Shown: positions 33,751-58,252, counted from the stretch's first letter. The stretch is DNA of 64,000 bases from an uncultured Gemmatimonadales bacterium (GCA_963825055.1 CAWGSK010000012.1:544001-608000), one strand, 5' to 3'. The notes: a model not told the origin generated them from the sequence alone. Translations and numbers: made by a program.

Positions 33751-33810
33751 TCCATTACCTCCAGGAGCGTGAACCGTCCGGCCGGCGCCTGCCGCCGGAC
33801 CCGTCTGACA

Positions 33811-33885
33811 TGGGCGAAGAGGGATTCGAACCCCCGACTTCCTGCGTGTAAGGCAGGCGCTCTGAACCAGCTGAGCTATTCGCCC
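33811..33885 (-). tRNA. tRNA-Val (TAC), CCA not encoded
   Basis: GGGCGAA/TTCGCCC acceptor stem, CCTGC-CTTACAC-GCAGG anticodon arm, GGTTCGAATCC T-loop. Confidence 0.96.
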
Positions 33886-34229: not shown

Positions 34230-35240
34230 TCAGGGCCCGGGTGCGGAGGGGCCTCCATCACTATGGCCTCCCGCGCCCGGAAGCGCGGTGGGTTCAGTCA
34301 CACCCTCGGGATCGTCAGGTGGCGGCGCGGGCCAGCCACGGTCCAGGGCGGCGCGCCTCGGCCGGTCCATGCGCCGGCGGTTCCAGGCGAGGAACCCGAG
34401 CGCGACGGCAATGACCCCCCACATCCCACCCGCCGCCAGCCAGATGAAGAAGTTGTACCGGCGCCGGAGCCCGCGATGCCATTCGCTTTCGAACTGACCG
34501 GTCGTGAGCCCGGTGGACGCACGGAGCGCCTGGTCGAAGTCCTCGTCGTTTACCAGGCGCGTCATGAACGGCTCGAGTTGTCCACCGGGAATCCGGCGCT
34601 GGATCTCCAGCACGGCCGACATGGCCAGCGCATAGGCGTCCTCCGCCTCGCTGGAGCGGCCACGCAGCCCGGCATCGAGCGTGCGGAAGTCCGGGAGCCG
34701 CCCGCGAAGAACCGTCCATGACAGGCGAGCCGCATCCAGCCGGTCCCACTCCCCGCTCGCCATGCCCGCATAGCCCTCGTCAAACCAGAGCGGCAGCCGG
34801 ACGTGCACCGCGTCGTGCAGCGCGAGGTGGGCCAGTTCGTGGCGCAGCGTCCTCGGGAGTTCGCCGAGATCGGCACGGAGAAGGATCGTCCGGCTTGAGG
34901 GAAAGGCGAGCGCCGCGCCCCACGATGGCGCCCTGCCCTGCGTGAAACGGCGCATCGCCGTCTCGTCCCGCACCACGACGAGTCGAAGGGGGCCCGGGTC
35001 GCGCCGGCCGAGTCCGGGCCAGTCAGCAGGGCGGTCGGCGATTTCGGCCAGGCCGACCGCAAGGGAGGCCTGCGCCTCCGGGGCTACCACCACCACGTTT
35101 CCCACGCGCACGGACCGGTAGCCCGAGTCGGGCTGCTGCGCCCGGACCGGGACCGTGACCGCGAGGAGAGCCGCGGTCAGGCCGAGCCGGAACGCGGCGG
35201 CTCGCCACCACCGGCGACGAGCTCGAGCATTTCCCGACAC
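34230..35240 (-). CDS. Membrane-anchored zinc metallopeptidase (peptidase MA-like/gluzincin)
   Basis: Signal peptide ending VRA|QQ; HELAH followed by LPLWFDEG; C-terminal TM segment followed by a basic RRR stretch; start uncertain. Confidence 0.8.
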   Translation of the reverse strand: MSGNARARRRWWRAAAFRLGLTAALLAVTVPVRAQQPDSGYRSVRVGNVVVVAPEAQASLAVGLAEIADRPADWPGLGRRDPGPLRLVVVRDETAMRRFTQGRAPSWGAALAFPSSRTILLRADLGELPRTLRHELAHLALHDAVHVRLPLWFDEGYAGMASGEWDRLDAARLSWTVLRGRLPDFRTLDAGLRGRSSEAEDAYALAMSAVLEIQRRIPGGQLEPFMTRLVNDEDFDQALRASTGLTTGQFESEWHRGLRRRYNFFIWLAAGGMWGVIAVALGFLAWNRRRMDRPRRAALDRGWPAPPPDDPEGVTEPTALPGAGGHSDGGPSAPGP

Positions 35241-36046
35241 CGTTTGCCCCACGGGTTGAAGCGGTTGGCCTTGGCGCCGTCCTCCCACGCCCGCCGCGCC
35301 TCGTTCCTCGCGCCGGAGAACCAGCGCGCGCGTCCCAGCTCGTACCACGCTTCCACCAGGTTCGGCCCTATCTCCAGTGTCTTACGGAAGAATGCCTCCG
35401 CATCCTCATACATGTCCCGCTCGAGATAGACCAGGCCGAGGTAGAAATGCGCGTAGAGCATGGCTTTCGGATCGTTGTTGAGCCGGATCGCCTTGGACAG
35501 GTGCTCGATGGCCTCACCAAAGATGCCCTTCTTCAGACAGATGTACCCGACGTTGATCCGGGCCAGCGAATTCTCCGGCTCGCGCATGAGCACGCGGGAG
35601 AAAGTTGACAGAGACTCGTCATATTCCTCGTGCAGCATCTGGGCCCAGCCGAGCAGGCTCTGCGCCTGGGTGTCCTCGGGCGCCAGGTCCAGCGCCTTGC
35701 GCAGCGCGTCGATGGCCCCGACGTGATCCCCGAGCGAGATGAGGCTCCAGCCCTTTTCGACAAACGTCGATGCTCCCAGGTGATCGGCGTGCAGTATCGG
35801 GCGGGCGGCGGCGAACTGGGGGCCCGAAGGCCGGTCGCCCCGGCGCGTCTGCTGCTTGTAGCGGTCCACCAGGGTGCGGATCTCCTCCCGCAGTTCGCCC
35901 AGTTCCTGGAGCGCCGTCTCCACTTCCTTGAAGAAACCGATGATGTCGCGCTTGATGGATTCGAGCGCGGCCGGGTCGGGCTCGGCCCCCAGTCGCCTGT
36001 CGAGTTCGGCGTACCGGGAACGGAACGGCTCGAGTGGGGCGCTCAT
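35177..36046 (-). CDS. Cytoplasmic coiled-coil + TPR protein
   Basis: N-terminal amphipathic helices, then about 5 TPRs (ALDLAPEDTQAQSLLG, AHFYLGLVYLE, PNLVEAWYELG); ATGA overlap with cheW. Confidence 0.85.
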   Translation of the reverse strand: MSAPLEPFRSRYAELDRRLGAEPDPAALESIKRDIIGFFKEVETALQELGELREEIRTLVDRYKQQTRRGDRPSGPQFAAARPILHADHLGASTFVEKGWSLISLGDHVGAIDALRKALDLAPEDTQAQSLLGWAQMLHEEYDESLSTFSRVLMREPENSLARINVGYICLKKGIFGEAIEHLSKAIRLNNDPKAMLYAHFYLGLVYLERDMYEDAEAFFRKTLEIGPNLVEAWYELGRARWFSGARNEARRAWEDGAKANRFNPWGKRCREMLELVAGGGEPPRSGSA

Positions 36047-36540
36047 GAGCGCTTCCGGCTCCCGCGCGCGTCGGCGGCCGCGGTGGCCACCCCGGCCAGG
36101 GCGAGCCGTTCCTTAGAACTGAGCAGCCGTCCGGCGTTCAGCATCAGGATGGTGCGCTCGCCGCGACGGACGATGCCCGAGAGGAACTCGGCGGCGAGCC
36201 CCCGCACGATGGGCGGCGGCGGGGTAATGGTGGTGCTGTCGATCCGGAGAACCTCGATCACCTGGTCCACCAGGACCCCGACCCGGTCATCATCCAGCAG
36301 CAGGATCATGATGCGGACCTCCTCGGTGAGGCCGGCGGGGACCTCCAGGCGCTTGCGCAGGTCCACCACTGGCGCAACGCCATCGCCGTAGCCGACGACA
36401 CCCTCCAGGAAATCCGGCGCATGCGGGACGCGGGACGGACGCTCATAGCGGAGAATCCGCTCGAGCTGGAAAATATCGAGTGCGAATTCCTGGTCACCGA
36501 CCCGGAATACCACAATCTGGATTTCGTCGTCAGTCGGCAC
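36043..36540 (-). CDS. cheW: Chemotaxis coupling protein CheW
   Basis: IVVFRVGDQEFALDI, VPHAPDFLEGVV, PVVDLRKRL, VGVLVDQVIEV; GTG start with GGAGG RBS. Confidence 0.9.
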   Translation of the reverse strand: MPTDDEIQIVVFRVGDQEFALDIFQLERILRYERPSRVPHAPDFLEGVVGYGDGVAPVVDLRKRLEVPAGLTEEVRIMILLLDDDRVGVLVDQVIEVLRIDSTTITPPPPIVRGLAAEFLSGIVRRGERTILMLNAGRLLSSKERLALAGVATAAADARGSRKRS

Positions 36541-36979
36541 CACTGGCCTCCACCGGCTGCAACCTGGCCGCGAGCAGTTCGAGATCGAGCACCGGCACGT
36601 AGGCTCCTGCCTGGCCGGCCAGTCCTGCCGCCCACGGCAGCGGGGCGCCCTGTTCCACCGGACGCAGTTCTTCGTGAATGATCGCGACGGCGTCGTCCAC
36701 CTTGAGGCAGAGCACCCGCTCATGCACCCGCATGATCACCCCCATTCCTCCCATCGCCCCGTCTGCATCGTCGTCCCCGGCCGGTCCGAGCAGCCGGGAC
36801 AGGCTGAAGAGCGGGACCAGCCGGTTGCGCGCCGGGACGACCCCGAGCAGCGCCGTCGCGGTCGCCGGCACCGGGAAGTGCTCCGGCACGTCCACTACGG
36901 CTTCGACCGACTCCACCGGGAGCCCGATGCGGCGTCCGCCCGCCACCACGAGCAGGAAGGAGGCGACGCGAGGCGTCAT
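36530..36979 (-). CDS. cheW: CheW-like protein (divergent)
   Basis: [49 protein letters not shown]. Confidence 0.8.
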
Positions 36980-38037
36980 GCGACGGCCCGGTAGAGCAGC
37001 CCCGAGACATGCTCGGCGATGCGGCCGAGGGGCAGGACGACGTTCGCGCCGCCGGCCTGGACCGCGGCATTGGGCATTCCGTAAACCGTAGAAGTCGAGC
37101 GATCCTGCGCCACGCCGTAACCCCCCGCGTCGTGAATAGCGCGCAGGCCCGCCGCGCCGTCCCGCCCGAGTCCGGTCAGGACCACACCGATCGCACGGGG
37201 GCCATAAATCCGGCTGATGCTCTCGAAGAGCGGATCGGCGGCGGGGCGGACGCCCCAGATGGACGGTGACTGGTCGAGTGTAATGACGGGGCCGGCGGGG
37301 CCATCACCCACGCGCATATGATAACCGCCCGGGGCGACATAGGCGGTATCCGCCTGCACCACCGTGCCCTCCGACGCCTCCACGACGGCGAGCGCGCTCT
37401 GCGCGGCGAGGCGCGCGGCCAGGCCGCGGGTGAAATCGGGTGGCATGTGCTGCACGATGAGCACCGCAGCCCCGGTGCCGGTGGGCAGGTGCGGCACGAC
37501 GTCGGCCAGCGCGCGCGGCCCCCCGGTGGAGGCGGCGATGGCGACGGCGCGGGTCGCGGCCCCGATGGAACGCGAGGGCCGGGGAGGCGCCTGTGAGGGT
37601 CGGGCGAGGACCGGAAGCCGGCCGATGTCGGCCGCGCGAGCGGCGTCGAGCGCCTCCAGCAGCCGCGGTGCCAGCGCCCGGATGCCCTCCCGGCTCGGGC
37701 GGTTCTCCTTGGCCACGATCTCCACCGCGCCGAGTTCCAGCGCGCGGATCGCGCCCGCGCTGCCCGACCCGGCGTGGGAGCTGAAGACGACGATAGGGGT
37801 GGGGATCTCCGACATGATGTACCCGATCGCGCCCGCCCCGTCCAGCTGGGGCATCTCCAGATCCATCGTGATGAGGTCGGGGTGGTACTGGTGCACCTTC
37901 TGGAGGCCGTCGATTCCGTTCCGCGCGGTGGCCACGACGGCATACCGGCCGGAGTCATTGATGATCTCCGTGAGCATCTGCCGGATGAGCGCACTGTCAT
38001 CCACGATCAGCACCTTCGGCCGCTCATCAGATGACAT
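36976..38037 (-). CDS. cheB: Chemotaxis response-regulator methylesterase CheB
   Basis: REC domain (VDDS, TMDLEMP) plus ASTGGP, VQHMP and LTGLGRDG (Ser/His/Asp triad), VYGMP. Confidence 0.94.
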
Positions 38038-38506
38038 ACTCGCCCTGTGCCACCGTGCGCACGCGGATCTCTCCGGTGTCGACACTGAACCAGAGAGACC
38101 GGCCCGCGTTGCCACCGACGAGCTCACCGGTGATGGGGATCGCGTGCTGGTTCAGCACGCGGCGGACCGAGACCACGTTGCGTTCTCCCATCTGGATGGA
38201 CCCCGGCGCGCTCAGCAGGGCGAAAAGGCCCGCCCCGCCAATCAGCCGGGCAGTAATGCGACCCGCATCGGCGCCCCGGGCCTGCATGGCCACGACCAGC
38301 GCCGGCACGGCGGTCTCCGGGACCTTGGCCGGGTTATCGCTCCGGGCCAGCGTGCGGGACGGCAGCATGATGTGCGCCAGGCCGCCCACCTTGCCCGCGG
38401 GGTCGTAGAGCGCGATCGCCACGCAGCTGCCGAGGCCCAGGGTGACCAGCGTATCCCCCGCGCCCCCGGTGTTCATGTCGGCCACCCGTACCATGATGTC
38501 GCTCAT
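38027..38506 (-). CDS. cheD: Chemoreceptor glutamine deamidase CheD
   Basis: [36 protein letters not shown]. Confidence 0.92.
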
Positions 38507-39318
38507 CCGGCGAGCCGGTAAATGCGTTCACGGACATCCACTATCTCAAAACGTTCACGGATGGGGCCGAGTATGGTTTCCACCTTTCCCAGGACGAGGA
38601 GCCCACCCGGGGCGAGGGCACGGGCGAACCCCTCAAAGATGCGGTCCTGCCCCGCGCGGTCGAAGTAGATGAGCACGTTGCGGCAGATGATCATGTCGTA
38701 GGGCGCCGCAACCGGCGGGTCACGATGCAGGTCGAGCCGGGCGACGCGCACCCGCCGCCGCAGCCGCTCGCTGATCCGGAGCTGCCCGCCATCCGGTTCG
38801 GTGTAGCGCTCGACGAGGGCCGGAGGAGTATCCTTGAAGAGGATCGTGGGATACAGGGCCGCCGCCGCGCGTTCCAGCGAGGCGCGGTCGATGTCAGTTG
38901 CATCCACCGTGACGCCCCCGAGTGCCCCGGGCCGACCGTTGCGTTCCGCGACCTCGGCCACCGCCATGATCAGGGAGTACGGCTCCTCGCCTGAGGCGCA
39001 CCCGGCGCTCCAGAGGCGGATCGGAACCCGCTCGAGCAGGCCGGCGAGCAGGTCGTCGCGGAGCCGGGCCCACAATTCCGGGTTCCGGAAGAAGGTGGTC
39101 ACGTTGATCGTGAGCACGTCGGCCAGCTTCCCGTACTCCGCCGGGTCGCGCTCCAGGACCTTGAGGTAGTCCTCGTAGCTTTCCACACCGTGTGCCCGCA
39201 TCCGGACCGCGATCCGCCGCTGAAGGCAGCGCGGCTTGTAGGACGCCGGGCAGAGCACCCCGTGGTCCGCGATGACTCGCGTGAGCGCCTCGAATCCGGG
39301 ATCCACCGGCGTGCTCAC
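38503..39318 (-). CDS. cheR: Chemotaxis methyltransferase CheR
   Basis: RRIAVRMR, TINVTTFFRN, WSAGCASGEEPYSL, ATDID, CRNVLIYF; GTG start overlaps the upstream stop. Confidence 0.94.
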   Translation of the reverse strand: MSTPVDPGFEALTRVIADHGVLCPASYKPRCLQRRIAVRMRAHGVESYEDYLKVLERDPAEYGKLADVLTINVTTFFRNPELWARLRDDLLAGLLERVPIRLWSAGCASGEEPYSLIMAVAEVAERNGRPGALGGVTVDATDIDRASLERAAAALYPTILFKDTPPALVERYTEPDGGQLRISERLRRRVRVARLDLHRDPPVAAPYDMIICRNVLIYFDRAGQDRIFEGFARALAPGGLLVLGKVETILGPIRERFEIVDVRERIYRLAG

Positions 39319-40928
39319 TGCCCCGCCCCCAGCGTCTCGAGGTTGGTGCGGGCCAGCTCGTGCCCGGGATTGATCGCCGTCGCCCGCTCCCAGCAATGTC
39401 GCGCCGTGTCGGGGTCACGCTGCCGGTACGCGATATTGCCGAGCTTGAAGTAGAGGTCGTCTCCCAGCTCGGGCGCGAGGCGCGCCGCCCGCTGGTACGC
39501 GTCGCGGGCTTCGTCATACCGTCCCGCGCGGTACAGCAGGTCGCCGAGGTTCTTGGTGATCTGCGGAAGGGTTGGGGCCTCCTCCAGCGCCTCACGGACG
39601 AGCGACTCGGCCTCGCCCACATCGCCCCGCAGCTCCAGCAGGACGGCGAGATTGTTCCGGAGGACCGGGTTCGAGGGCCATGCCGCGATCCCCTCGCGGC
39701 CGACTTCCACCGCCTCGTCCACGTCATCCTGCAGGGCGGCGGACATCATGGCTGCCCAGAACCACAACGGCGATGGTGTCGCGTCCCCCCAGGCCTCGCG
39801 CGCATCGGTGAGCCGGTCCCGGGCCTTCGCGGCATCGTCCCTCCGGAGCGCCAGGATGGCCCAGCCGGTCAGCGCGGCGGGGCCTGCGCCCAGGTCCACG
39901 GCCCTGGCATACGCCCCCTCAGCGTCTTCATCCTGTCCGAGGTGCTCGAGGGCGACACCGAGATTGTGGCACACGTCGGCCCGGTCGCCGCCCAGGTCCC
40001 GGGCGCGGGCGAGGGCGTGCACGGCGTCGCCCCAGCGGGACTCCCGCAGCGCAATCTGGCCGAGCTGCCGGGGCGCGTCAGGATCAGCTGGACGCAGTTC
40101 CTCCACCCGACGGTACTCGCGCTTCGCTTCCTCGAGCATGCCTGTCTTGTAGAAGGCGACTCCCAGGTTCCGGTGCTCCTCCACCCGGACATCCCGCGCC
40201 CGCGGTGCCGCCGTGGCGGTGGTGCCGGTCCGGTGCAGGAAGCCCGCGGTGAGGAGGCCGTAAAGGGCCTGCCCGACCTCGAACTCCACCAGGCCGGCGT
40301 CCTCGATGAGCTGGCGGATGTCACGGGTGCCGTCCAGCAGGGGCAGCAGCCGCTGCTGGTGCGGCGACAGGCTCACGTCGGAACGATCGACGTGGTCGCT
40401 GTCCAGGGTGAAGATGATGTCGAAGCTGGGGATTTTCTTCTCGATAATGCTCCACTCGTCCACCCGCCTGGCACCTTCGAGGAGGAGCGACTCGGGATTG
40501 ATCTGGACGAGGAAGTCCTGCTCGTCGGGCGTGATGCCCGCCTCAAAGTTGAACGTGCCGCTGTTCCAGGTGAACAGATAGTAGACCGCCTCCTCGATCT
40601 GGAGCCGGATATACGACTCCAGGTCGGCCCGTGAGATCGCGCCGTCATCAACCAGGATCTCCCCGAGTTTCCTGCCGCGGTCGGTCGCCTGGCGGGCCAT
40701 CGCCTGCTCCAGTTGCGACTGGCTGATCTGCCCGTTCTTGACGAGGATATCGCCCAGGCGGTCCCGGCGGTTTACGATGGACGCGTAGGTGATCCGGCCA
40801 CGCTCGAAGTAGATGTATCCGAAGTTGTGGCGGTCGGCAACGGCAAGACAGCCGGTCTTCCGTCCGAGCGCGAGCAACTGGAGGACGTCCGGGAGGCTCG
40901 CTTCCTTGAGACTGCCGCGGATCGCCAT
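39315..40928 (-). CDS. DUF4388 (PATAN-like) + tandem MshEN-like motif + TPR protein
   Basis: GSLKEASLPDVLQLL...KTG.L...IYFERGRI; RLGDILVKNG...Q and KLGEILVDDG...Q; WNSGTFNF, LLLEGARRVDEW; C-terminal TPRs. Confidence 0.85.
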   Translation of the reverse strand: MAIRGSLKEASLPDVLQLLALGRKTGCLAVADRHNFGYIYFERGRITYASIVNRRDRLGDILVKNGQISQSQLEQAMARQATDRGRKLGEILVDDGAISRADLESYIRLQIEEAVYYLFTWNSGTFNFEAGITPDEQDFLVQINPESLLLEGARRVDEWSIIEKKIPSFDIIFTLDSDHVDRSDVSLSPHQQRLLPLLDGTRDIRQLIEDAGLVEFEVGQALYGLLTAGFLHRTGTTATAAPRARDVRVEEHRNLGVAFYKTGMLEEAKREYRRVEELRPADPDAPRQLGQIALRESRWGDAVHALARARDLGGDRADVCHNLGVALEHLGQDEDAEGAYARAVDLGAGPAALTGWAILALRRDDAAKARDRLTDAREAWGDATPSPLWFWAAMMSAALQDDVDEAVEVGREGIAAWPSNPVLRNNLAVLLELRGDVGEAESLVREALEEAPTLPQITKNLGDLLYRAGRYDEARDAYQRAARLAPELGDDLYFKLGNIAYRQRDPDTARHCWERATAINPGHELARTNLETLGAGQ

Positions 40929-42898
40929 CAGGACAGTCCCTCGAGCAGGCGGTCCGCGGGCGTTGGCCAGTCCCAGATCATCTTCTCCCGATTCCGCACG
41001 ACACCGCGCCCGATGACCCCGCTCGTCCGCGAACCATTGCGCCGTGGGGGACGCGGCGCCGCGCCCTCGAGCACGTCGCGGGCGAACCCCGCCGAGAGGG
41101 TGGCGGACTGGGACTCCGCCTTACGGGCCAGGCGCTGGACGATCTCCTGGAGCGCACGCACACTGTCCACTGCGTGGCCCGCGAGGTACTGGACCAGCTC
41201 CGGGTCAGCGGCTTCACCATCGAGCATGTTCCGCACAATGGCCCGCCGGACTTCCGGGCCGGGCACGGGCAGCTCCGCCACGAGGCCACCTTCGAGCCGG
41301 CTGGCGAGGCGCGGGGCGAGACCCTCGAGTTCGCCGGGAGGCCGGTGCGAGGTGAACATCATCTGCCGCCCCTGCTCCTGCAGATGGTTGAACAACCAGA
41401 AGAGTTCCTCCTGGGTACGGTCGGTGCCGGCGAGCAGGTCAATATCGTCCAGGAGGAAGGCCGTGGCTCGGCGGTAGCGTTGCCGCCACCAGTCCACCCG
41501 GTCCTGGTCGATGGCCGCGATGAGTTCTTCCACGAACTCCCGCGCATTGAGGCACGCAACGACCGCATCGGCCTGGGCCGCCAGCAGGTTGCCCACCGCG
41601 TGCAGCAGGTGAGTCTTCCCGGTGCCGGGGGGGCCGACCAGTACCAGCGGGTTGTAGCGCTGGCCGGGGGAGTCAGCCACGGCCAGTGCGGCCCGCACGG
41701 CCACCCGGTTCGTCTCGCCCTCGGCAAAATCCTCCAGCTGCCAGTGGGGGGAGGGCGCCGGCAGCGGGGTAGCTCCTTCCCGCGCCGCGGCGACCAGTTT
41801 CTCGACCTCGGCCACGCGGTCCGGGTCGCGGAAGGCCGGGTCTCCGGCCACGGACGGGTCAATGGCCTCCGCCTCGGCGGCCAGCAATCGCAGCCGCTCG
41901 ATGTCGGTTTCGAACCGCTCGACTTCCTGCTCGACGTCCCGCTCGCCCGGGTCCTCGAACAGGTCGCGGAGCCGCGCCACGCGATAGCCCTCGCCCTCCC
42001 AGCGGGCGATCGCTTCCCCGAGACGCACGCGCCACTGCTCAAGCTGTCGCGCGACCGTGGTCGAGATCTCGCTCAGGAAGGAGCCGAACTCATCGTCCGA
42101 GGACGGCGTGAAGGCCGGCCCGTCTTCCCCGCCCTCCGGCGGCAATGCGTCGGCGTCCGCGGGAGGCTCCACCCCGGCACGATCGGTACGCAGGATCTCG
42201 CGGGCGCGGGCTTCGCCGAGCGGTTCCTGGTTGGCCATCTGCCAGGCGATGAGCCGGTTGAGCGCGCCGAGCAGTTCCCGGATGCTGGCGACGTCGAGCG
42301 TGGCGGCGGCCTCGATGACACCGGGGTCGAACGTGAGCCCGCGGCTCTCGGCGTGCCGGCGCAGGATGGCGACCCGGGTTTCGTAGTCCGGCGCGGCAAT
42401 ATCAATCACCAGTCCCCCGGCGAAGCGGCTGATGAGCCGCTCGTCCAGCGACTCGATTTCCGATGGGGGGCGGTCGCTCGTCAGCACAATCTGGTGGCCG
42501 GCGGTCTGCATGGCATTGACCAGCCGGAGCAGCTCGGCCTGCATCTCGCGACGCCGGGCCAGGAACTGCACGTCGTCGAGCAGGAGCAGGTCGAGTTCCG
42601 CGTAGCGGCGGCGGTAGGCATCGCCCTGCCCGGCCCCGACCGCGGCGTGGAACGCCTCGACGAAGTCATCGAGGGTCTGGTAGGCGATCCCGAGACCGGG
42701 CGCGATCGTCCGGGCGGCCTGCGCGATCGCCATCAGCAGGTGCGTCTTGCCGAGCCCGGGACCGCCATAGATGAAGAGGGGGTTATACACCACGCCGGGA
42801 CTCTCGCTCACCGCACGCGCGGCGGTGGCCGCAAGCCGGTTGGCCGCCCCGACCACGAAGGTCTCGAACCGGAATCGGTGATTCAGCTCGAGTGTCAT
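40928..42898 (-). CDS. Protein with two tandem DnaA/Hda-type AAA+ domains, lacking DnaA domains I/II and IV
   Basis: Domain 1: FETFVVGAAN, YNPLFIYGGPGLGKTHLL, LLLDDVQFL, TSDRPP, RLISRFAGGL, IRELLGAL. Domain 2: YNPLVLVGPPGTGKTHLL, LLDDIDLL, TQEELFWLFN, TSHRPP, RLASRLEGGL, VRALQ. Confidence 0.9.
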   Translation of the reverse strand: MTLELNHRFRFETFVVGAANRLAATAARAVSESPGVVYNPLFIYGGPGLGKTHLLMAIAQAARTIAPGLGIAYQTLDDFVEAFHAAVGAGQGDAYRRRYAELDLLLLDDVQFLARRREMQAELLRLVNAMQTAGHQIVLTSDRPPSEIESLDERLISRFAGGLVIDIAAPDYETRVAILRRHAESRGLTFDPGVIEAAATLDVASIRELLGALNRLIAWQMANQEPLGEARAREILRTDRAGVEPPADADALPPEGGEDGPAFTPSSDDEFGSFLSEISTTVARQLEQWRVRLGEAIARWEGEGYRVARLRDLFEDPGERDVEQEVERFETDIERLRLLAAEAEAIDPSVAGDPAFRDPDRVAEVEKLVAAAREGATPLPAPSPHWQLEDFAEGETNRVAVRAALAVADSPGQRYNPLVLVGPPGTGKTHLLHAVGNLLAAQADAVVACLNAREFVEELIAAIDQDRVDWWRQRYRRATAFLLDDIDLLAGTDRTQEELFWLFNHLQEQGRQMMFTSHRPPGELEGLAPRLASRLEGGLVAELPVPGPEVRRAIVRNMLDGEAADPELVQYLAGHAVDSVRALQEIVQRLARKAESQSATLSAGFARDVLEGAAPRPPRRNGSRTSGVIGRGVVRNREKMIWDWPTPADRLLEGLS

Positions 42899-43497: not shown

Positions 43498-43500
43498 CGG

Positions 43501-43962: not shown

Positions 43963-44312
43963 CAGGCCACCCGCTCCGCGGCGCGCGCCATCTCAAGCCT
44001 CACGCGCCCCGCGTTGGCATCCCGCTCACCGATGGCGACAATCACGATTTCCTCTCCCGCCGGCATGACGAACACGGCTCCTCCGGCGGCCTGCAGGTGC
44101 AGGAAGGCCGGTGCTCCGGCCGCCGCCACACGGGCGGCGGCCTCGAGCCGGGCCAGCAGGCTGGCCGCCAGTGCGGCCAGGGCCGGACCGCGGACATCCT
44201 CCATGACCGACTCGGCGATCACGATCCCGTCGCGCCGGCTCACCAGCATGGCGCCCTGGATCCCGCTGAGGCACACCAGCAGCTCGAGGGCTGCCTCGTG
44301 TTCGGCGATCAT
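43962..44312 (-). CDS. Stand-alone Roadblock/LC7 protein
   Basis: GIQGAMLVSRRDGIVIAE, ALAALAASL, ANAGRVRLEM; ATGA overlap with the upstream gene. Confidence 0.8.
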   Translation of the reverse strand: MIAEHEAALELLVCLSGIQGAMLVSRRDGIVIAESVMEDVRGPALAALAASLLARLEAAARVAAAGAPAFLHLQAAGGAVFVMPAGEEIVIVAIGERDANAGRVRLEMARAAERVA

Positions 44313-45127: not shown

Positions 45128-46265
45128 TCAAGCCTCGCAAGACATGCTCCAGAGTCCCGGCCGCGTCACGGGCGGCCCGAACCGATTCGTCGTGTCCCAT
45201 TTCCTCAGGTCCGCGGGCACCAAGCCATTGCTCCCAGTGCTCCCGCGCCAAATGGAACCGTCCCAGTTGTGCCGCGGCGGTTCCCGCGTGGCGGTGTGCC
45301 GCCGCCAGCCCCGGGTCGAGCTGCAGCGCGCGCTCGGATGCACCCAGGGCATCCGCCGAGCGTCCCGCCGCGAGGAGGACCCGGGCCAGCACCAGATGCG
45401 CGAGGGGCTGTTCCGGATGCACGACGGCGGCGTCCCCGGCCGCGACCAGCGCAGCCTCGACCCGCCCGGCGGCAAGGTCGTCCTCCGCGCGTGCGATGGC
45501 CATGGCCAGCCCGCCCTCTCTCCCGATCTCAGCGGCCGGAGGCACCGCCGTGTCCTCAAGGAGGATAATGCCCGCCGTGGCCAGGCCGAAGAGCGTCTTC
45601 GCGACCTCGAACTCGGAGCGGTTGAGCGTGATGGACAGGTCATGGACGTTACGGCTGCCGTCAATGGAGGCGAGCACCTCCCACTCGAACGGCATGAGGT
45701 CCAGCGGCCCCGCGTCGGTTCCCACGGGCGCCAGCCGGGCGACGATGCCCAGATGCGGAATGCGGGTCTCGATGCGTGACCACTCGTCGATCCGCCGGGC
45801 GGCTTCCATCACGAGGGCCTCAGTCGGGATGCGGACGGCCGCTTCCATCGACATGCGGGTGGGATCGCCCTCCTCGAAGGAGAAATATCCCTCCGACCAT
45901 CCGAGGAGCTCGAACACGACCTCCTCGGTCTGCCGTCGGATAATCCGGTCCACCTCGCGGCGGCTGATCGACCCGGCCTCGACCAGGAGATCGCCGAGCC
46001 GGCGCGTGTCGCCGGCCTCCTGCAGGGCGCGCACGCGCGACAGTTCCTCCTCGGACACCTTGCCGGCTTTCAGCAGGAGACCGCCCAGCGGGTGTGGGTT
46101 GGTCCGGATCTCAGCCCCGATCACCGCGCCGCTCTCGAAATACACCGTGCCCGCGTTCTGTCGCAGCGCCGAGCGCACGCGGAGCACACCGGTCTTCCGG
46201 CTCAGGTCGAGGAGCTGGAAGACATCGTGAATGCCCAGCTCGCGGAGGGGGCCCTCGATCGCCAT
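45120..46265 (-). CDS. DUF4388 (PATAN-like) + MshEN-like motif + TPR protein (paralog of 39315-40928)
   Basis: GPLRELGIHDVFQLL..SRKTGVL, VYFESG, RLGDLLVEAGSI...Q, WSEGYFSF, LVMEAARRIDEW, C-terminal TPRs. Confidence 0.85.
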   Translation of the reverse strand: MAIEGPLRELGIHDVFQLLDLSRKTGVLRVRSALRQNAGTVYFESGAVIGAEIRTNPHPLGGLLLKAGKVSEEELSRVRALQEAGDTRRLGDLLVEAGSISRREVDRIIRRQTEEVVFELLGWSEGYFSFEEGDPTRMSMEAAVRIPTEALVMEAARRIDEWSRIETRIPHLGIVARLAPVGTDAGPLDLMPFEWEVLASIDGSRNVHDLSITLNRSEFEVAKTLFGLATAGIILLEDTAVPPAAEIGREGGLAMAIARAEDDLAAGRVEAALVAAGDAAVVHPEQPLAHLVLARVLLAAGRSADALGASERALQLDPGLAAAHRHAGTAAAQLGRFHLAREHWEQWLGARGPEEMGHDESVRAARDAAGTLEHVLRGLSG

Positions 46266-46268
46266 GGG

Positions 46269-48947
46269 TCAGGCCGTCTGGCGTGTGAGGATGTACTGGA
46301 GGTCGCGCGCACTGCGGCTCTCGGCCCGCGCGGCCAGCGCGAAGGATGATTGCGGATGCAGCCGGACCAGCCGCTCCCATGCGCGCACCGCCTCGGGGAA
46401 CCGGCGCAGTCGTGTCAGGCCGACGCCCGCGTAGTAGAGGCCGTCAGCCCGGTCCGGCACGAGGCGAAGCAGGCGCAGGAAGGCCTCGATGCCACGCTCG
46501 GTCCGCCCCGCGTCGAGCAGGGTGCGGCCGAGCAGGGCGAGCGACTCGAGGTCGGACGGGTCACCCTCGAGCGCGCCCACGAGCAGGCGGATGGCCTCGG
46601 CATGTTCGCTGTTACGCCGGAGGAGGTCGGCGAGCGCGTGAATCGCCTCGGCATACGTCGGCAGGAGGTCGAGCGCGTGCTCGTAGGCCATGCGCGCGGC
46701 GATCCAGTTCTCCCGCCGTTCCTCCAGTTCCCCGAGCTCGCGCCAGAGCTGGGCCCGGCCGGTATCGAGCTGCAACGCGCCCTGGCAGGCCTCGACCGCC
46801 GCGTCCACCTCGCCAAGCTGGGCGCAGATCCGGGCCTGGAGCTGCAGCAGGTCGGCACGACCGGGCGCGCGGGCCCGCCCGGCCCGGATCAGATCGAGGG
46901 CCGCAACGGGATCACCGGTGCGGTGCCGGACCGTGGCTGCCGCCAGCAGGCCGTCGACGTTGCCCGGATCCGAGGCGATCAGGGCCTCGGCCAGGGGCGC
47001 CGCCTCCCGGGAGCGGTCCAACGCCACGAGGGAACGCACCTCGCCAAGCAGCGCGTGAGGATCGTCGCCCAGTACCTCGCGCGCCTCGCGGTAGCGTTCG
47101 AGCGCCTCGCCGTGCAGGCCGCGCCGGGCGTACACGTCGGCCAGGAGCAGCCGGGCGGGCGCCTCGGGCGCGCCGCGCGCGATGGCGCGGTCCACCTCCG
47201 CCGCCGCCCGGTCGAGCATCCCCTTGTGCAGGCAGTCGCGCGCCAGGGCAAGCGGGTCCCCCTCGGGCGCGGGACCCGGCTCTCCCGCCCGCGGCGCGAG
47301 GTCGCGGAAGATCTGGTCGAGCAGCCGGGGGTCGAAGCTGAAGGCCTCGCCCACCTCCGCGGCACTTACGTCGCCGGAGATCTCCGGCACGATGGAGATG
47401 GTCGGGTCCTCGTACTGGAGGTCAATTGTCAGCGAGAACTTCTGCGGCACGTAGTACGGCTCCAGCTCGAGGGCGCGCTTGGTCTCCCGCAACGCCCCGT
47501 CGAAGTCGCCGAGTTGGCTCAGGGTGAAGCTCAGGTTGTAATGCGCGGAGGCGTTGTCAGGCGCGCCGTCCACGGCGCGGGCAAAGGCATTGCGTGCGTC
47601 CTCGAAGCGCTTGAGTTCAGTGAGGACGAGGCCGATTCCGTTCCACGCGAGCGGGTGATCGGTGTGATCCTCGAGCACGCGCTGGAACGCCTCAAGCGCG
47701 AGCTGGAGCCGCTGGCGGTGCAGCAGGAGGAGCCCGAGGTTGAGGCGGGCCGTCACGAGATCCGGCGTGCCCCGCAGGGCTTCCTGGAACGCGTCGGCCG
47801 CCACTTCCGTGTCCACGCCGTGCGCGAGCAGGACGCCGAGGTTGTTCCAGGCGAGGGCATACCCGCCGTCGAGATCAATCGCGCGCCGGTACGAGCGGGC
47901 TGCTTCGTCCCGGCGGCCTGCGTGGTGGAGGCAGACTCCCCGCTCGTTCCAGAGCTTGGGCGAATCCTCGAACTCGCGGATCAGTTCCTCGTAGAGGTCC
48001 AGGGCGGCCGAGAGGTCGCGGCGCAGCAGGTGGACCTCGGCGATTGCCTGCATGGCCAGGCGGCGATCCTCCCCGTGTTCCAGGGCGAGGCGATATTCGC
48101 GGAGCGCCTCGGCGTGGTATCCCTTCTGCCGGAACGCGAGACCAAGGTTGTAGTGGGCGAGGGCGCCGCCCTGGCTGATCCCGGGCCGGGTGGGCCCGGC
48201 TGGGCGGGATTCCCCGACGTGCTCCGGTTCGCGCAGTGAAAGGTTGGTGTGCGCGCGGGCGAAGGTCGGGTTCAGGGCGATGGCCTGCTTCGTGGCCGCC
48301 TTCGCCGCCTCGTGCTCACCGAGATCGCCGTACAGGAAGGCCAGGAGGTAATGCGCGTCGGCGTTGTCGGGGTTCAGGCGCAGCGCCGCCTCGAGCGCCG
48401 TGCGGGCGGGATCGTTCAGGCCGCGGTGGTACAGCGCCTCGCCGAGGTAGAACAGGGCAAGCGGGCTGTCGGGGTCGAGCTCGACGGCATGCTGGAAATG
48501 GTCCGTGGCCGCCTCGAGGTCACCGCTGGCCTTCTCGGCGAGGCCGAGCTGGATGAGGGTGGCCGGATCGTCGGGACGATGGCCCAGCAGCAGGGTGAAC
48601 TCGCGGATGGCCTCGGGGTGGTGGCCCAGGGCGCCGTAGATGCGGCCCAGTTCCCAGCGTGCCTCGAGGTCCTCACCCGAGTCCCGAATCCTCTCGCCGA
48701 GCTCGGCGACGCGACGGTCGTAGTAGCCGGTGTTGCGGTAGGCGATCTCCAGATTGGCCTGCGCGACCTGCATGCGGGGGTCGAGTTCCAGCGCGCGGGT
48801 GAACTCGCTGACCGCCTCCGGGACCAGTCCTTTCTGGAAATAGAGGACGCCCAGGTTGTTGTGGGCGCCCGCGTCGGAAGGGTCGATGCGCCCGGCGAAG
48901 GAGCGGAGGACCGCAAGATCGCGCTCCGACAGCACCTGGCCGGCCAT
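46269..48947 (-). CDS. Large cytoplasmic TPR-repeat protein (892 aa)
   Basis: Many canonical TPRs (AHNNLGVLY, AHYNLGLAF, AWNNLGVLL, AWNGIGLVL, AHYNLSFTL); no signal peptide; central non-TPR acidic segment. Confidence 0.88.
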   Translation of the reverse strand: MAGQVLSERDLAVLRSFAGRIDPSDAGAHNNLGVLYFQKGLVPEAVSEFTRALELDPRMQVAQANLEIAYRNTGYYDRRVAELGERIRDSGEDLEARWELGRIYGALGHHPEAIREFTLLLGHRPDDPATLIQLGLAEKASGDLEAATDHFQHAVELDPDSPLALFYLGEALYHRGLNDPARTALEAALRLNPDNADAHYLLAFLYGDLGEHEAAKAATKQAIALNPTFARAHTNLSLREPEHVGESRPAGPTRPGISQGGALAHYNLGLAFRQKGYHAEALREYRLALEHGEDRRLAMQAIAEVHLLRRDLSAALDLYEELIREFEDSPKLWNERGVCLHHAGRRDEAARSYRRAIDLDGGYALAWNNLGVLLAHGVDTEVAADAFQEALRGTPDLVTARLNLGLLLLHRQRLQLALEAFQRVLEDHTDHPLAWNGIGLVLTELKRFEDARNAFARAVDGAPDNASAHYNLSFTLSQLGDFDGALRETKRALELEPYYVPQKFSLTIDLQYEDPTISIVPEISGDVSAAEVGEAFSFDPRLLDQIFRDLAPRAGEPGPAPEGDPLALARDCLHKGMLDRAAAEVDRAIARGAPEAPARLLLADVYARRGLHGEALERYREAREVLGDDPHALLGEVRSLVALDRSREAAPLAEALIASDPGNVDGLLAAATVRHRTGDPVAALDLIRAGRARAPGRADLLQLQARICAQLGEVDAAVEACQGALQLDTGRAQLWRELGELEERRENWIAARMAYEHALDLLPTYAEAIHALADLLRRNSEHAEAIRLLVGALEGDPSDLESLALLGRTLLDAGRTERGIEAFLRLLRLVPDRADGLYYAGVGLTRLRRFPEAVRAWERLVRLHPQSSFALAARAESRSARDLQYILTRQTA

Positions 48948-48953
48948 CGGGAT

Positions 48954-49574
48954 TCAGGACAGCCGGATGGCGTCGAAGACGGCCCGGAGCGACGCCACGT
49001 CGGGCATGAGCAGGAAGTGGCCGCGCAGTCCCTCGGCCTCCTTGGCGAACTGGAACTCGGTCTCGAGGCAAAAGACGAACTCGCGCTCGTGGCCGAAGTT
49101 CAGGTAGGCGGACGTCAGCACCGCGCCCAGCAGGTCGATTACGAGGCTCGGGACGCTGGGCAGGAGCATCATCCCCATGAAGTCGCTCAGCGCGTTGAGG
49201 TAGGCGCTGCTGAGAATGTTGCCCGCCTCCTTGAGGCCGGACTGCTCCATGACGCCGAAGTCCGTCGTGGTGGGGATGGGCCGCCGGAGGAGAATGTCAC
49301 AGAGCACCTTCGCGGAGTCTTCCGGGAAGAGAATCATGGTGCGTCCCGTCAGGTCGCCCATCATGTGCATGAGCACGGCCGCGACGACATCATCCGTCTT
49401 GCCCAGCACATTGGCGACTTCCTCGAGCCGCGTGATGTTCACCTCGGGGACACTGATCATGATCTTGTGGCCCGTCATCTGGGACAGGGCGGTAGCCGCA
49501 TGCCCCGCGCCGATGTTGGCCACCTCGCGCAGGGCGTCGAGCTGCAGCGCCTCCAGGTTCCGGATGTCGTCCAT
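48954..49574 (-). CDS. cheC: CheY-P phosphatase CheC
   Basis: DALREVANIGAGHAATALSQM and SGLKEAGNILSSAYLNAL (two E-x-x-N sites), FLLMPD. Confidence 0.93.
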   Translation of the reverse strand: MDDIRNLEALQLDALREVANIGAGHAATALSQMTGHKIMISVPEVNITRLEEVANVLGKTDDVVAAVLMHMMGDLTGRTMILFPEDSAKVLCDILLRRPIPTTTDFGVMEQSGLKEAGNILSSAYLNALSDFMGMMLLPSVPSLVIDLLGAVLTSAYLNFGHEREFVFCLETEFQFAKEAEGLRGHFLLMPDVASLRAVFDAIRLS

Positions 49575-49583
49575 ACCCACTCC

Positions 49584-51464
49584 TCAGGTGAGAGCTGCAG
49601 CGTCGAGAATGAGCGCGGGGTGACCATCCCCGAGGATGGTGGCACCGCTGAACACCGGGAGCATGCCCCGGGGCGCATCGAAGGCCTCCACCACGATCTC
49701 GTGCTGGCCCAGAAGCTGGTCCACCACCAGGGCGGCGCGGCGCTCGCCGGCCACGAGGATGATGGTGGGCCGGCGCCCGGTTACCGCCATCGCCGGCGCG
49801 GATATCTCGAGCACGTCGCGCAGGTGGCGCGTGGGGATGACGTCATCCCGGAGCACCAGCGCCTCGCGTCCGCCGAGCGAGGTGACGCGCTCGGGATCGA
49901 ATTGCACCGTCTCCGCCACGTGGGTGAGGGGCACGGCGTACCGCTCCTCGCCCACCCCGGCCAGCAGCACCTTGAGCACGGCCAGGGTGACCGGCAACTG
50001 CATGGTGACCGTCGTGCCCCGCCCGGGATCTGTCCGGAGGCTGACCCGCCCGCCCAGCTGCCGCACGCGGGACAGGACGGCGTCCACCCCCACGCCGCGG
50101 CCGGAGACGTCCGTCACCTGCTCGGCCGTGCTGAACCCGGCGCGCGAGAGGATCCGCAGCAGCTGGTCATCCGGGAGGGTGCGCGCGTCAGGCTCGACCA
50201 GCCCCTCCTTCCGGGCACGCGTGAGGACCCCCTCCCGATCGATCCCCCGGCCATCATCGATCACCCGGATCGCGACGCCCTGACGGTCCCGCGCGGCCGA
50301 CAGCACGATCCGGCCGGCGGCGGGCTTGCCCAGCCGCTCCCGCTCGCGGGCGGGCTCGATGCCGTGGTCCACCGCGTTCCGCAGCAGGTGCAGCAGCGGG
50401 TCGCCGATCTCGTCCAGGATCGCGCGGTCGAGCTCGATATCCCCGCCCTCGATCTGGAACTCCACCCGCTTGCCGAGCTGGCGCGCGAGATCGCGGATAA
50501 TCCTGGGGTAGCGGTCGAACACCTGCCACACCGGAGTCAGTCGCACGGCGATCACTTCGCTCTGGAGCGTGTTCACCAGCCGCGTGATCCTGGCGCTCAC
50601 CGCCTCGAGCTCCGGCGACGCCGAGCCGGTCACGACGTCGGTCAGGCGGCCGCGCGCCACCACCAGCTCACCCATCACGTTCATGAGCGTGTCGAGCCGC
50701 CCGAGGTCCACCCGGATATGCCGGCGGGCGCCGCTGCCGGTCTCGCCGGGCGCGACCTCGGCATGGACAGGCGCCTCACCGATGGCGACCTCGTCGATGT
50801 CACCGGCGGAGCGGATGGCCGCCTCCAGCGCGGCGTCGTCCGCGCTGCCGTCGAAGCGGAACGAGAAGGCGCCATCGAAATCGTCACGCTCGAATGCCGC
50901 GACCGCCGGGCGCACCCCGTCCAGCCGCCCGAGGCCCTCCGCCTTCCGGAGCGCGATCGTCGCGCGGCCGCCGCGCATGATCGCGTCGCGACGGACACGG
51001 ACCCGGACCAGGCGTCCCGCGGCGGGCTCCGCCCTTGACGCGGAAGCCGCGCCGGGCATGGCAATCGGGAACTCGGCCGTGCCCATGCGGGCGGCGGCAG
51101 CATCGAGATCGGAAAGCAGCGACCCGAGATGCGCCCCGGCATCCTCGCCCCTGACGGCGATGTCGATCCCCTGTTCCAGCGCGTCCACCGATCGGAACAG
51201 CAGCTCGAGGACCTCTGGAGAGGCAGGGGTAATCCGCTCGCGCAGCAACGCGAGGAGGTTCTCCGCGCGATGGGCGAGGTCGGTGACGGGCCCGTAGCCC
51301 ATCGTCGCCGCCATGCCCTTGATCGTGTGCATGGCACGGAAGATCCCGCCGACCGGCTCCACCGAAGCCGGGTCGCGCTCCAGCTCCAGCAGGAGCCGGT
51401 TGCACGTCAGGAGATGTTCGCGACTTTCCGCGAGGAACAGCGAGGCGTAGCGGGAGACGTCCAT
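49584..51464 (-). CDS. cheA: Chemotaxis histidine kinase CheA (with P2 domain)
   Basis: Hpt IFRAMHTIKGMAATMG, P2-like region, LDTLMNVMGELVV, HLLRNAVDHGIE, DDGRGID, GFSTA..VSGRGVGVD, P5 CheW-like domain. Confidence 0.96.
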   Translation of the reverse strand: MDVSRYASLFLAESREHLLTCNRLLLELERDPASVEPVGGIFRAMHTIKGMAATMGYGPVTDLAHRAENLLALLRERITPASPEVLELLFRSVDALEQGIDIAVRGEDAGAHLGSLLSDLDAAAARMGTAEFPIAMPGAASASRAEPAAGRLVRVRVRRDAIMRGGRATIALRKAEGLGRLDGVRPAVAAFERDDFDGAFSFRFDGSADDAALEAAIRSAGDIDEVAIGEAPVHAEVAPGETGSGARRHIRVDLGRLDTLMNVMGELVVARGRLTDVVTGSASPELEAVSARITRLVNTLQSEVIAVRLTPVWQVFDRYPRIIRDLARQLGKRVEFQIEGGDIELDRAILDEIGDPLLHLLRNAVDHGIEPARERERLGKPAAGRIVLSAARDRQGVAIRVIDDGRGIDREGVLTRARKEGLVEPDARTLPDDQLLRILSRAGFSTAEQVTDVSGRGVGVDAVLSRVRQLGGRVSLRTDPGRGTTVTMQLPVTLAVLKVLLAGVGEERYAVPLTHVAETVQFDPERVTSLGGREALVLRDDVIPTRHLRDVLEISAPAMAVTGRRPTIILVAGERRAALVVDQLLGQHEIVVEAFDAPRGMLPVFSGATILGDGHPALILDAAALT

Positions 51465-51468
51465 GGTA

Positions 51469-51831
51469 TCACCCGAGGACGCGCTGCACCGCCTCGAGCA
51501 CCCGGGATGGCTGGAAGGGCTTGACGACGAAATCCTTGGCGCCGGCCTGGATCGCCTCGACCACGAGCGCCTGCTGTCCCATCGCACTGCACATGAGCAC
51601 CTTGGCATCGGGATCCGCCTTGCAGATCTCGCGCACCGCCTCGATCCCGCCCATGTCCGGCATGACGATGTCCATCGTGACGAGGTCGGGCTTCAGCTGG
51701 CCGTACTTCTCGACCGCCTGCCGCCCCGTCTCCGCTTCGCCCACGACATCGAAGCCGGCCTGGGAGAGAATGTCGCTGATCATGGTGCGCATGAAGATCG
51801 CATCATCGCAAACGAGGACGGTCTGAGCCAC
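51469..51831 (-). CDS. cheY: Chemotaxis response regulator CheY (Bacillus/Thermotoga-like)
   Basis: CDDAIFMR, PDLVTMDIVMP, MCSAMGQQALVVEAIQAGAKDFVVKPF; GTG start with GGAGG RBS. Confidence 0.94.
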   Translation of the reverse strand: MAQTVLVCDDAIFMRTMISDILSQAGFDVVGEAETGRQAVEKYGQLKPDLVTMDIVMPDMGGIEAVREICKADPDAKVLMCSAMGQQALVVEAIQAGAKDFVVKPFQPSRVLEAVQRVLG

Positions 51832-51914
51832 GCGAACGCCTCCGTGCCTTGTGCCTCGGTGATCCTGCGGCCCAAGCGGGCGGCTCCCGCCGCACTGCCT
51901 GGGAACGACTGCCA

Positions 51915-52355
51915 TCAGCCCCCGAACACGGGAGCCAGTAAGACCTCGGTATCGAGGACGATGAAGACCTCGTCACCGCGCCGACCCACGGCCCCGACGA
52001 GACGTCCGTCCACGCCGGGCAGGTCCTCCCTGGCATCGAGGGCGTCGGCGGAAACCTTCACCAGGTCAGCCACCTCATCCACCAGCAATCCGAGCGGCCG
52101 GCCGGCCACCTCCAGCAGGAGGATGGACGGGTCGTCCGGCGGCGGACCGGCATGGCGACCCAGGACCCGGCGCCCGTCCACGACCGTGACCAGCCGGCCA
52201 CGGACGTTGACCAGGCCTTCGACATTTTCCGGTGCACCGGGAATACGCGCCGCGGCCCCAGCGGGGACAATTTCCCGCACGCTCCGTACCGGTACCGCAC
52301 AGTGCAGGTCCCCGATGCGGAACAGCAGCAGCGACACCTGGGTATGGTCAGCCAT
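51915..52355 (-). CDS. cheW: Chemotaxis coupling protein CheW
   Basis: LLLFRIG, VREIV, IPGAPENVEGLVNVRGRLVTVVD, GLLVDEV; start overlaps the rluD end by 8 nt. Confidence 0.9.
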   Translation of the reverse strand: MADHTQVSLLLFRIGDLHCAVPVRSVREIVPAGAAARIPGAPENVEGLVNVRGRLVTVVDGRRVLGRHAGPPPDDPSILLLEVAGRPLGLLVDEVADLVKVSADALDAREDLPGVDGRLVGAVGRRGDEVFIVLDTEVLLAPVFGG

Positions 52356-54233: not shown

Positions 54234-54262
54234 TAGCGCTTCCGTCTGTGGGTGACGCCGGC

Positions 54263-58245: not shown

Positions 58246-58252
58246 GACGGCC

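Follow-up and report, generated by a model that had tools for sequence, protein, structure and literature searches.

A 64,000-nucleotide stretch of the genome of an uncultured Gemmatimonadales bacterium (GCA_963825055.1 CAWGSK010000012.1:544001-608000), referred to here as the window, contains an operon of 19 minus-strand genes, from position 52355 down to 34230, that joins a set of chemosensory (che) genes, an MglA-type GTPase with roadblock proteins, two PATAN (DUF4388) proteins and an ATPase made of two DnaA-type domains. We see about an even chance that chemosensory, GTPase and cyclic di-GMP (c-di-GMP) inputs converge in this system on a scaffold-ATPase pair, D43b and dA2, to gate type IV pili; the pilus output is the part that we infer. 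The operon probably steers surface pili rather than flagella. Its parts are of known kinds, and the arrangement and the ATPase were not described in the literature that we searched.

Gene order and conservation of the operon

Gene identities were taken from Pfam and NCBIfam profile matches in the host genome (G000; completeness 87%, contamination 6%), and coordinates below are window positions on the minus strand unless a contig is named. The order is cheW, cheY, cheA, cheC, a gene for an 892-amino-acid tetratricopeptide repeat (TPR) protein (TPR892), a DUF4388-TPR gene (D43a), a TPR-roadblock fusion, a roadblock gene, an mglB-like gene, mglA, the double DnaA-AAA+ gene (dA2), a second DUF4388-TPR gene (D43b), cheR, cheD, cheB, two further cheW genes, a TPR gene (TPR289) and a zinc peptidase gene. 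With the most plausible start codons assumed, 17 of the 18 junctions lie between an 11-nucleotide overlap and a 9-nucleotide gap; the outlier is the spacing of 83 nucleotides between the first cheW and cheY. The start of the peptidase gene is uncertain and may be a CTG that overlaps the upstream stop codon or a GTG 60 nucleotides further up. An earlier note on this DNA had described 19 co-oriented, tightly packed genes in this order, and all of them are present.

Relatives were collected by scanning GTDB genomes with dA2 as the sole query, which returned 45 loci from close relatives. Forty-four are labelled Gemmatimonadota and one Acidimicrobiia; the latter likely comes from a mis-binned genome. 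Of the 28 loci whose contigs cover the whole block, 27 have this 19-gene order, the exception being one without the second cheW, and the remaining 17 loci agree with it as far as their contigs reach. The arrangement is therefore not a product of chance, and the inner block is conserved next to che genes. The cheY gene product is 83-93% identical in 30 of 31 close relatives.

The distribution in the phylum was surveyed in 200 sampled Gemmatimonadota genomes, each at least 90% complete, with a profile of the dA2 linker as marker; related genomes among them do not count as independent samples, and the tallies include four unpublished ones (G053, G093, G153 and G178). A strong match was found in 135 genomes, including 95 of the 97 within the host's own family and none of the 15 outside its class. 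This number is a lower bound, since dA2 genes escape the profile when their linker is deleted or interrupted by the end of a contig (G074, G176, G200). Genome G075, with a weak match at a locus that has no operon gene, was excluded. The N-terminal part of D43b was found in 146 of the 200 genomes. Positions of both dA2 and CheA were listed for 123 genomes: in 104 they share a contig, always within 10 kb, and in 19 they lie on different contigs.

The putative D43b scaffold and the dA2 ATPase

According to Pfam matches, alignment and a structure model, dA2 (40928..42898) consists of a first DnaA-domain-III unit (AAA1, residues 5-236), a helical repeat unit (approximately residues 270-380), a second such ATPase unit (AAA2, residues 384-610) and a predicted C-terminal docking peptide (residues 633-656). 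In the AlphaFold2 model (pLDDT 83.5, pTM 0.46) a helical linker joins two folds of the DnaA domain-III type, and the tail is loose; the best fold match is 8bv3 (TM 0.96 over the target, root-mean-square deviation 1.3 Å). In 58 aligned copies AAA1 always keeps the Walker A lysine and the first Walker B aspartate, with sensor 1 and the arginine finger in 53 each and sensor 2 in 52. Walker A and B of AAA2 are kept in 52 of the 58, and its sensor 1 is not. Positions I190, K222 and T225, which bind single-stranded DNA in Bacillus subtilis DnaA (bioRxiv 10.1101/2022.03.18.484894), are occupied in dA2 by His (40 of 58), Arg (37) and Thr (22). AAA1 shares with DnaA domain III and Hda the fold, Walker A and B, sensor 1, the arginine finger and sensor 2. 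Unlike these proteins, dA2 has two copies of the domain, no domain I, II or IV (no Bac_DnaA_C among the listed Pfam matches, and neither domain I nor IV in the model), a changed I190 position, a helical repeat unit between the copies and the predicted docking peptide. Its motifs suggest that AAA1 would bind ATP and oligomerise through the arginine finger as DnaA does, and would act on proteins instead of an origin.

D43b (39315..40928; Pfam, NCBIfam and model) combines a PATAN domain that carries a tandem MshEN insert (residues 57-110), a small alpha/beta domain and a TPR superhelix (residues 244-536). We chose D43b and dA2 for complex prediction because their genes overlap by one base and survive together, and because the dA2 tail is highly constant: AAA2 or the linker can be deleted in some copies and the tail, EK-V-W-x-W-P...R-L-x-E-E, persists. 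The earlier note had proposed a structure prediction for the AAA+ and DUF4388 proteins, and here the dA2 tail is indeed predicted to dock on D43b. The complex of D43b residues 1-533 with dA2 residues 617-656 scored 0.84 and the best of three controls 0.01; the mark for this score was attained by 116 of 157 solved complexes, against 2 of 215 mismatched pairs, and these counts hold only roughly here, our own alignments having been the input. Between runs at least 86% of the contacts agree, the partner pLDDT is at least 68, and the peptide lies along the TPR groove of D43b, at residues 291-492.

A correlated loss that does not depend on the model supports this prediction. About 50-60 residues are missing from the end of the D43b groove in all eight loci without dA2 and in none of 38 dA2-bearing sequences (37 loci and the window, with the frameshifted G123 excluded). 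Seven of the eight shortened proteins are C-terminal truncations of one clade, and the eighth, in G110, is an apparent internal deletion on another branch (FastTree, two lineages). The prediction and this pattern together support binding of dA2 to D43b through its C-terminal peptide.

The MshEN insert of D43b scores 55.3 bits against the NCBIfam cut-off of 38. MshEN is made of two 24-residue RLGxxLxxxG...LxxQ motifs with a short spacer (PMC5013675), which the insert fits, and its R57 is invariant in 58 sequences. D43a (45120..46265; Pfam, NCBIfam), a PATAN protein with a short TPR region, has a degenerate MshEN-like insert, whose first motif begins P-L-G, and stays below the cut-off at 31.1 bits. 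Of the two possible c-di-GMP sensors of the earlier note, only D43b passes the profile; judging from its motifs, it would bind c-di-GMP through its insert. The second messenger is likely made in the host, which has 12 GGDEF matches. The insert is cleanly deleted in seven of the eight dA2-less loci; we tried its loss as a sign of dA2 binding and rejected it as more than a lead, the seven being one clade and the eighth locus a counter-example. Stand-alone paralogues of the PATAN-MshEN part of D43b, with other C-terminal regions and lengths up to about 970 amino acids, were seen outside the operon at L088, L089, L090 and L091 (G065, G089, G040 and G086).

Databases name dA2-type proteins 'chromosomal replication initiator'. 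A true dnaA lies elsewhere in the host genome, on contig C20, so dA2 is not the housekeeping DnaA. It is also quite improbable that dA2 serves cell-cycle control, as an Hda-like or decoy protein that assembles together with DnaA and links replication or division to polarity signals. AAA1 does share 42% identity with domain III of the host DnaA and keeps the oligomer residues, but dA2 has no domain IV, the I190 position is mostly changed to His, many genomes dispense with the protein, and both of its domains form groups of their own apart from the eight true DnaAs in a FastTree phylogeny of 72 domains. The Hda model TIGR03420 gives dA2 189.5 bits, below its cut-off of 194.8, and dA2 has two domains, not one. 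The N-terminal clamp-binding motif of Hda was not seen by eye in the dA2 alignment. Two further observations speak for such a regulator. One is the gene upstream in the same string that we name divIVA-like from a motif. The other is a report of PatA at division sites (bioRxiv 10.1101/2021.06.11.447907).

The linker profile found 392 proteins among 1.84 billion representatives. Most of the 150 matches listed are dA2 forms or fragments; 14 carry the unit at least three times in tandem, among which one is named from a Thermoplasmatota archaeon and three have a DnaA domain at their end. That linker and repeat are homologous is supported by profile comparison (94.5%, E 7.9e-8). A search from one repeat protein listed nine clusters with MshEN and DnaA domains (P0290-P0298); the four that were scanned read MshEN, DnaA, a long helical region and DnaA over approximately 1900-2000 amino acids. 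P0307, a Thermoplasmata protein, fuses DnaA to a T2SSE/pilus-type ATPase, and DnaA-DUF835 fusions were also listed. By FastTree these fusion proteins are not orthologues of dA2, but in them DnaA domains have been recruited to c-di-GMP sensors and pilus-type motors. A broader proposal, which we hold with somewhat less than even confidence, is that the DnaA ATPase core has been recruited more than once, in bacteria and archaea, as a DNA-free signalling switch tethered to MshEN c-di-GMP sensors, PATAN scaffolds and type IV filament motors. The operon would be the fullest wiring of this kind: its ATPase would attach through the tail peptide to a scaffold on which signals from a chemosensory relay and a Ras-like GTPase also arrive.

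The repeat itself, an unannotated helical unit of about 98 residues with the motif W-x-x-E-G-Y, occurs in large, probably archaeal proteins (P0133, P0156, P0166, P0176, P0177, P0194, P0195, P0209, P0216 and P0238), where it is joined to DnaA, DUF835, zinc ribbons or membrane anchors; the dA2 linker is a single copy of it. A PATAN-like character of the N-terminus of these archaeal-type proteins was considered and found unsupported. P0304, a fusion of dA2 to DUF4388, was set aside as a probable assembly chimera, being a single record with both halves cut. For the neighbourhoods of MshEN-DnaA and repeat-DnaA genes, a first metagenome scan gave none and a second gave 80 loci, 78 with an ordinary domain IV and none with the repeat.

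Proposed inputs and output

The che genes stand on both sides of the inner block. Upstream are CheW (51915..52355; Pfam CheW E 2.7e-28), a single-receiver CheY of the F1 type (51469..51831; Pfam, NCBIfam, phospho-site motifs), for which 1tmy is the closest solved structure (E 6.4e-51), CheA (49584..51464; Pfam, NCBIfam) and the phosphatase CheC with both ExxN motifs (48954..49574; Pfam, NCBIfam, motifs). Downstream are the methyltransferase CheR (38503..39318; Pfam), the deamidase CheD (38027..38506; Pfam, NCBIfam, motifs), the methylesterase CheB with a receiver (36976..38037; Pfam, and NCBIfam at 352 bits against a cut-off of 293), a second, divergent CheW (36530..36979; Pfam) and a third (36043..36540; Pfam). 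CheA, CheY, CheC, CheD, CheB and CheR retain their catalytic motifs. The best NCBIfam models for the kinase, the response regulator and the phosphatase are CheA_Halo, CheY_Halo and CheC_Thermotogales, every one below its cut-off.

The joint presence of CheC and CheD and receptors of the 44-heptad (44H) class mark class F1 (PMC10746217). Both proteins are encoded in the operon, and the three receptor genes of the host genome have C-terminal arms of 153-157 residues (22 heptads), which places all three in the 44-heptad class by length alone. By its composition we file the che set as F1-like and Dif-like. The earlier note had called it complete; all the che genes that it named are present, but the operon has no receptor gene, and the three receptors lie on other contigs. 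The operon CheA is the only CheA found in the host genome. In the phylum survey receptors were found in 125 of the 126 genomes with dA2 and CheA, the single exception having a stop in cheA, and in none of the nine with dA2 and no CheA. Since receptors vanish from genomes that lose CheA, the scattered receptors belong to the CheA of the operon. One receptor gene (C4:39427-42419) lies directly behind a gene that we named by eye as a periplasmic branched-chain-amino-acid-binding-like protein, a hint at the ligand class. Another encodes a multi-helix membrane region and a GAF-like stretch and ends a run of trp genes with an HD-GYP-like gene (C13:222831-228940).

CheA has the layout Hpt-P2-dimer-kinase-CheW, with P2 and without a receiver (Pfam). 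DifE of Myxococcus xanthus has this layout, and FrzE is a CheA-receiver hybrid without P2 (PMC3945109); the comparison with Frz made in the earlier note is not borne out by this CheA. The set also resembles Dif and class F1 in its 44H-length receptors, its CheC (with CheD as in F1) and its non-flagellar setting. It differs from them in having no receptor in the operon, three CheW proteins, CheR, CheB and CheD in the same string, and an eight-gene MglA/PATAN/ATPase block inside. The W-Y-A-C order of its first genes is presumably also that of dif.

Class F1 systems are described as normally steering flagella, so that an ordinary flagellar chemotaxis operon with unrelated passengers has to be weighed. 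FliG, FliM and flagellin were not found in the 87% complete host genome, and FliG was found in 37 of the 135 dA2-bearing genomes of the survey; the output to a flagellar or archaellar switch that belongs to F1 is accordingly not seen here. FliG had no match in 89 of the 126 genomes with both dA2 and CheA, and many flagellated genomes have further copies of CheA. We consider a flagellar role very improbable.

The second input is the GTPase module. It comprises a TPR-roadblock fusion (44309..45127; Pfam), a stand-alone roadblock protein (43962..44312; Pfam), an MglB-like roadblock protein with a C-terminal helix (43501..43962; NCBIfam, and PDB MglB 6hjm at E 1.8e-9) and an MglA paralogue (42895..43497; PDB MglA 6h17 at E 1.1e-72). 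Aligned to 6h17, the P-loop, R53, T54, Q82 and NKxD are invariant in 42 close sequences, as is the arginine in the P-loop GPGRSGKT. The features of group 1 MglA (G1-G4 motifs, intrinsic R53 and Q82) are present in the operon protein and degenerate in G034. At the locus of some relatives mglA stands without any roadblock gene. The host genome has a second mglB-mglA pair at C12:190325-191507, beside genes named by eye as dnaX-, ybaB- and recR-like. Its MglA is 50% identical to that of the operon and the two MglB-type proteins are 35% identical. Given this second pair, the operon MglA is not the housekeeping copy, and the idea that the operon MglA and MglB are the cell's polarity switch lacks support. 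The second MglA has an insertion of about 28 residues before its last motif.

TPR892 (46269..48947; Pfam), a cytoplasmic protein of 892 amino acids with no membrane helix, is a candidate MglA effector only by analogy with SgmX, which it resembles in being a large cytoplasmic TPR protein near mglA. A FliM-like CheY-binding motif at its start was considered and rejected, as this segment continues into the first TPR and is also conserved where che genes are missing. The three roadblock proteins may cycle MglA, which in its GTP form may bind the TPR proteins and place the complex in the cell, as the precedents of MglA, SgmX and RomY suggest (PMC11580455, PMC9481161). The operon shares with the polarity module of M. 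xanthus (Frz with MglA, MglB, MglC, RomY and SgmX) an MglA of group 1 whose catalytic residues are intact, as well as several roadblock proteins and large TPR proteins; it differs in forming one locus instead of several, in a CheA unlike FrzE, in an MglA paralogue with the P-loop arginine and in the second mglBA pair.

The way in which these blocks hang together was read from 55 regions hand-picked for divergence or mismatch, 46 of which contain the operon D43b. The che genes are gone from G105 and G145; che genes, D43b and TPR289 alone are left in G068, G070 and G180; mglA and D43b remain without dA2 in G110 and G164; and the smallest loci consist of dA2, D43b and the peptidase (G112, G155), with TPR289 in addition in G200. 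D43b is retained in every reduced locus examined. The earlier note had seen one unit in this locus. The unit is conserved and combines a relay with CheC and CheD, a GTPase of the MglA type that is intact, c-di-GMP motifs of the MshEN type and an oligomer-type AAA+ ATPase, but relatives lose the che, Mgl or ATPase block alone. The che-less loci (G105, G145, G155, G112, G184), the Mgl-less ones (G068, G070, G180) and the continuity of the gene string with rluD, lspA and ileS would agree with loosely coupled modules, in which a che operon and an MglA/PATAN/ATPase cassette share a transcription unit behind housekeeping genes and phosphorylated CheY (CheY-P) acts outside the block. We find this unlikely: the inner block interrupts the che genes at the same place across families, D43b stays where only che genes remain, and cheY is intact in G066 and G184, from which cheA is gone. 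D43b is the first candidate for the entry of CheY-P into the block, since in three loci nothing but che genes and TPR289 remains beside it. In locus L048 (G066) the che genes are decaying to fragments, and cheY and the whole inner block are intact. In one genus (L061 and L097, from G034 and G033) R53 is lost from MglA, TPR892 and D43a are reduced, and the locus has no cheR, cheD or cheB; its dA2, D43b and peptidase genes are intact.

Pili enter the argument through the PATAN domains, which bind PilB1 and PilC in cyanobacteria (bioRxiv 10.1101/2021.06.11.447907); by analogy, those of the operon may contact PilB and PilC. As with the PatA-type (PATAN-REC) pilus regulators of cyanobacteria, a PATAN/DUF4388 domain is encoded in a chemosensory cluster; in contrast to them, neither D43a nor D43b has a fused receiver, an MshEN insert and a TPR superhelix are found in its place, and CheY is separate. 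MglA and MglB genes often lie near PATAN genes (PMC4316618). The host genome encodes PilB, with an MshEN motif of its own, PilT, PilC and a pilM cluster, names beyond the family matches being our assignment, and PilM was found in 130 of the 135 dA2-bearing genomes. The earlier note had offered pili, gliding reversals and asymmetric division as outputs; control of pili is plausible by these analogies, and gliding and asymmetric division gained no support. A search for the gliding marker GltE matched nothing, its controls included, and so says nothing about gliding. The host genome also encodes, at C7:118545-120929, an ATPase of the PilB/GspE type that ends in a receiver domain and may further connect phosphorelays to a pilus-type motor.

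Several observations weigh against control of pili by a D43b-dA2 pair. PilM is nearly universal in the phylum, being present also in 58 of the 65 genomes without the dA2 marker, so that pili do not co-vary with the operon, which itself contains no pilus gene; the second, ordinary mglBA pair could run pilus polarity without it. The nearest structures to D43b are OGT-type TPR-peptide superhelices, a likeness that the docking result may partly reflect, and the docking controls took in none of the operon's other TPR proteins. The groove loss rests on one or two events, since the starred branches do not force two; most central groove asparagines are kept in the seven-member truncated clade, which tempers the argument from correlated loss; and G110 keeps its MshEN insert with no dA2. 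The separate loss of che, Mgl and ATPase blocks means that the full wiring is not obligatory. Finally, the peptidase is lost alongside dA2, which points to an envelope output and is left unexplained by a pilus output.

This peptidase (34230..35180; Pfam) is an MA-clan zinc enzyme with one C-terminal membrane helix and a basic tail, encoded last in the operon behind TPR289 (35177..36046; Pfam), a 289-amino-acid helical-hairpin and TPR protein. Among the spanning loci, 34 of the 37 with dA2 have it and none of the seven without dA2 does, and its HExxH motif is kept in 35 of 35 aligned copies. Such a distribution, and the smallest loci G112, G155 and G200, would suit a core trio of dA2, D43b and peptidase in which a cytoplasmic ATPase/c-di-GMP switch is coupled across the membrane to processing of a surface or wall substrate, for attachment, matrix or budding; che and Mgl proteins would feed in, and pili would not be the target. 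Dif, the closest che type, controls exopolysaccharide (PMC3945109), in keeping with this. However, the peptidase is missing from three dA2-bearing loci (G065, G074, G093), its substrate and contact are hypothetical, and the links of PATAN and MshEN in the literature point to pilus ATPases. We regard an envelope output as a serious but clearly less probable alternative to the gating of pili.

Published context and flanking genes

A literature search, with subscription papers largely outside its coverage, found no description of the operon beyond one table line, and the accessible text of PMC10782961 and PMC5847659 does not cover it. The table (PMC4316618, supplementary file 3) lists GAU_1409 of Gemmatimonas aurantiaca as 'PATAN>MglA>-PATAN>'. 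Its neighbourhood matches the core of the operon in gene order, a single unnamed gene separating MglA from the second PATAN gene, and a separate MglB>MglA pair (GAU_1115) is listed as well. This supplementary file has no DnaA, CheC or CheW entry and gives no function. As far as the search reached, the label 'undescribed' of the earlier note holds for the system as a whole, but not for that line in print, which offers a cultured species with the same core order.

Gemmatimonadota, bacteria of soil and sediment, are abundant, and almost nothing is known of how they sense and move. If our explanation is right, an F1-type relay operates in most of the main class independently of flagella, and its signal passes, along with those of a second MglA and of c-di-GMP, through a scaffold and a DnaA motor put to new use. 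This would be a new way of coupling chemosensing to pili or envelope. It would also be the first non-replicative role for DnaA-type ATPases and would correct the database name of dA2-type proteins.

The 19 genes from 52355 to 34230 stand as described, but the limits drawn around them do not quite hold, as the string of overlapping genes starts further upstream. There rluD overlaps the first cheW by 8 nucleotides, and the tight packing continues beyond it through lspA, a dksA-type gene and ileS. The whole housekeeping string, continuous with the operon on the minus strand (52348-59447), reads yggS-like, divIVA-like, purine nucleoside phosphorylase, ileS, dksA-type, lspA and rluD; the yggS-like and divIVA-like genes are named from motifs. 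Scans for promoters and terminators stayed at chance level (1 against 0.8 and 7 against 5.1 expected). In nearly all relatives, the most reduced loci included, rluD adjoins the block. On the 3' side of the operon (32053-33885) lie a tRNA-Val(TAC) and a gene for an exported TPR protein of 565 amino acids, which is syntenic in most relatives.

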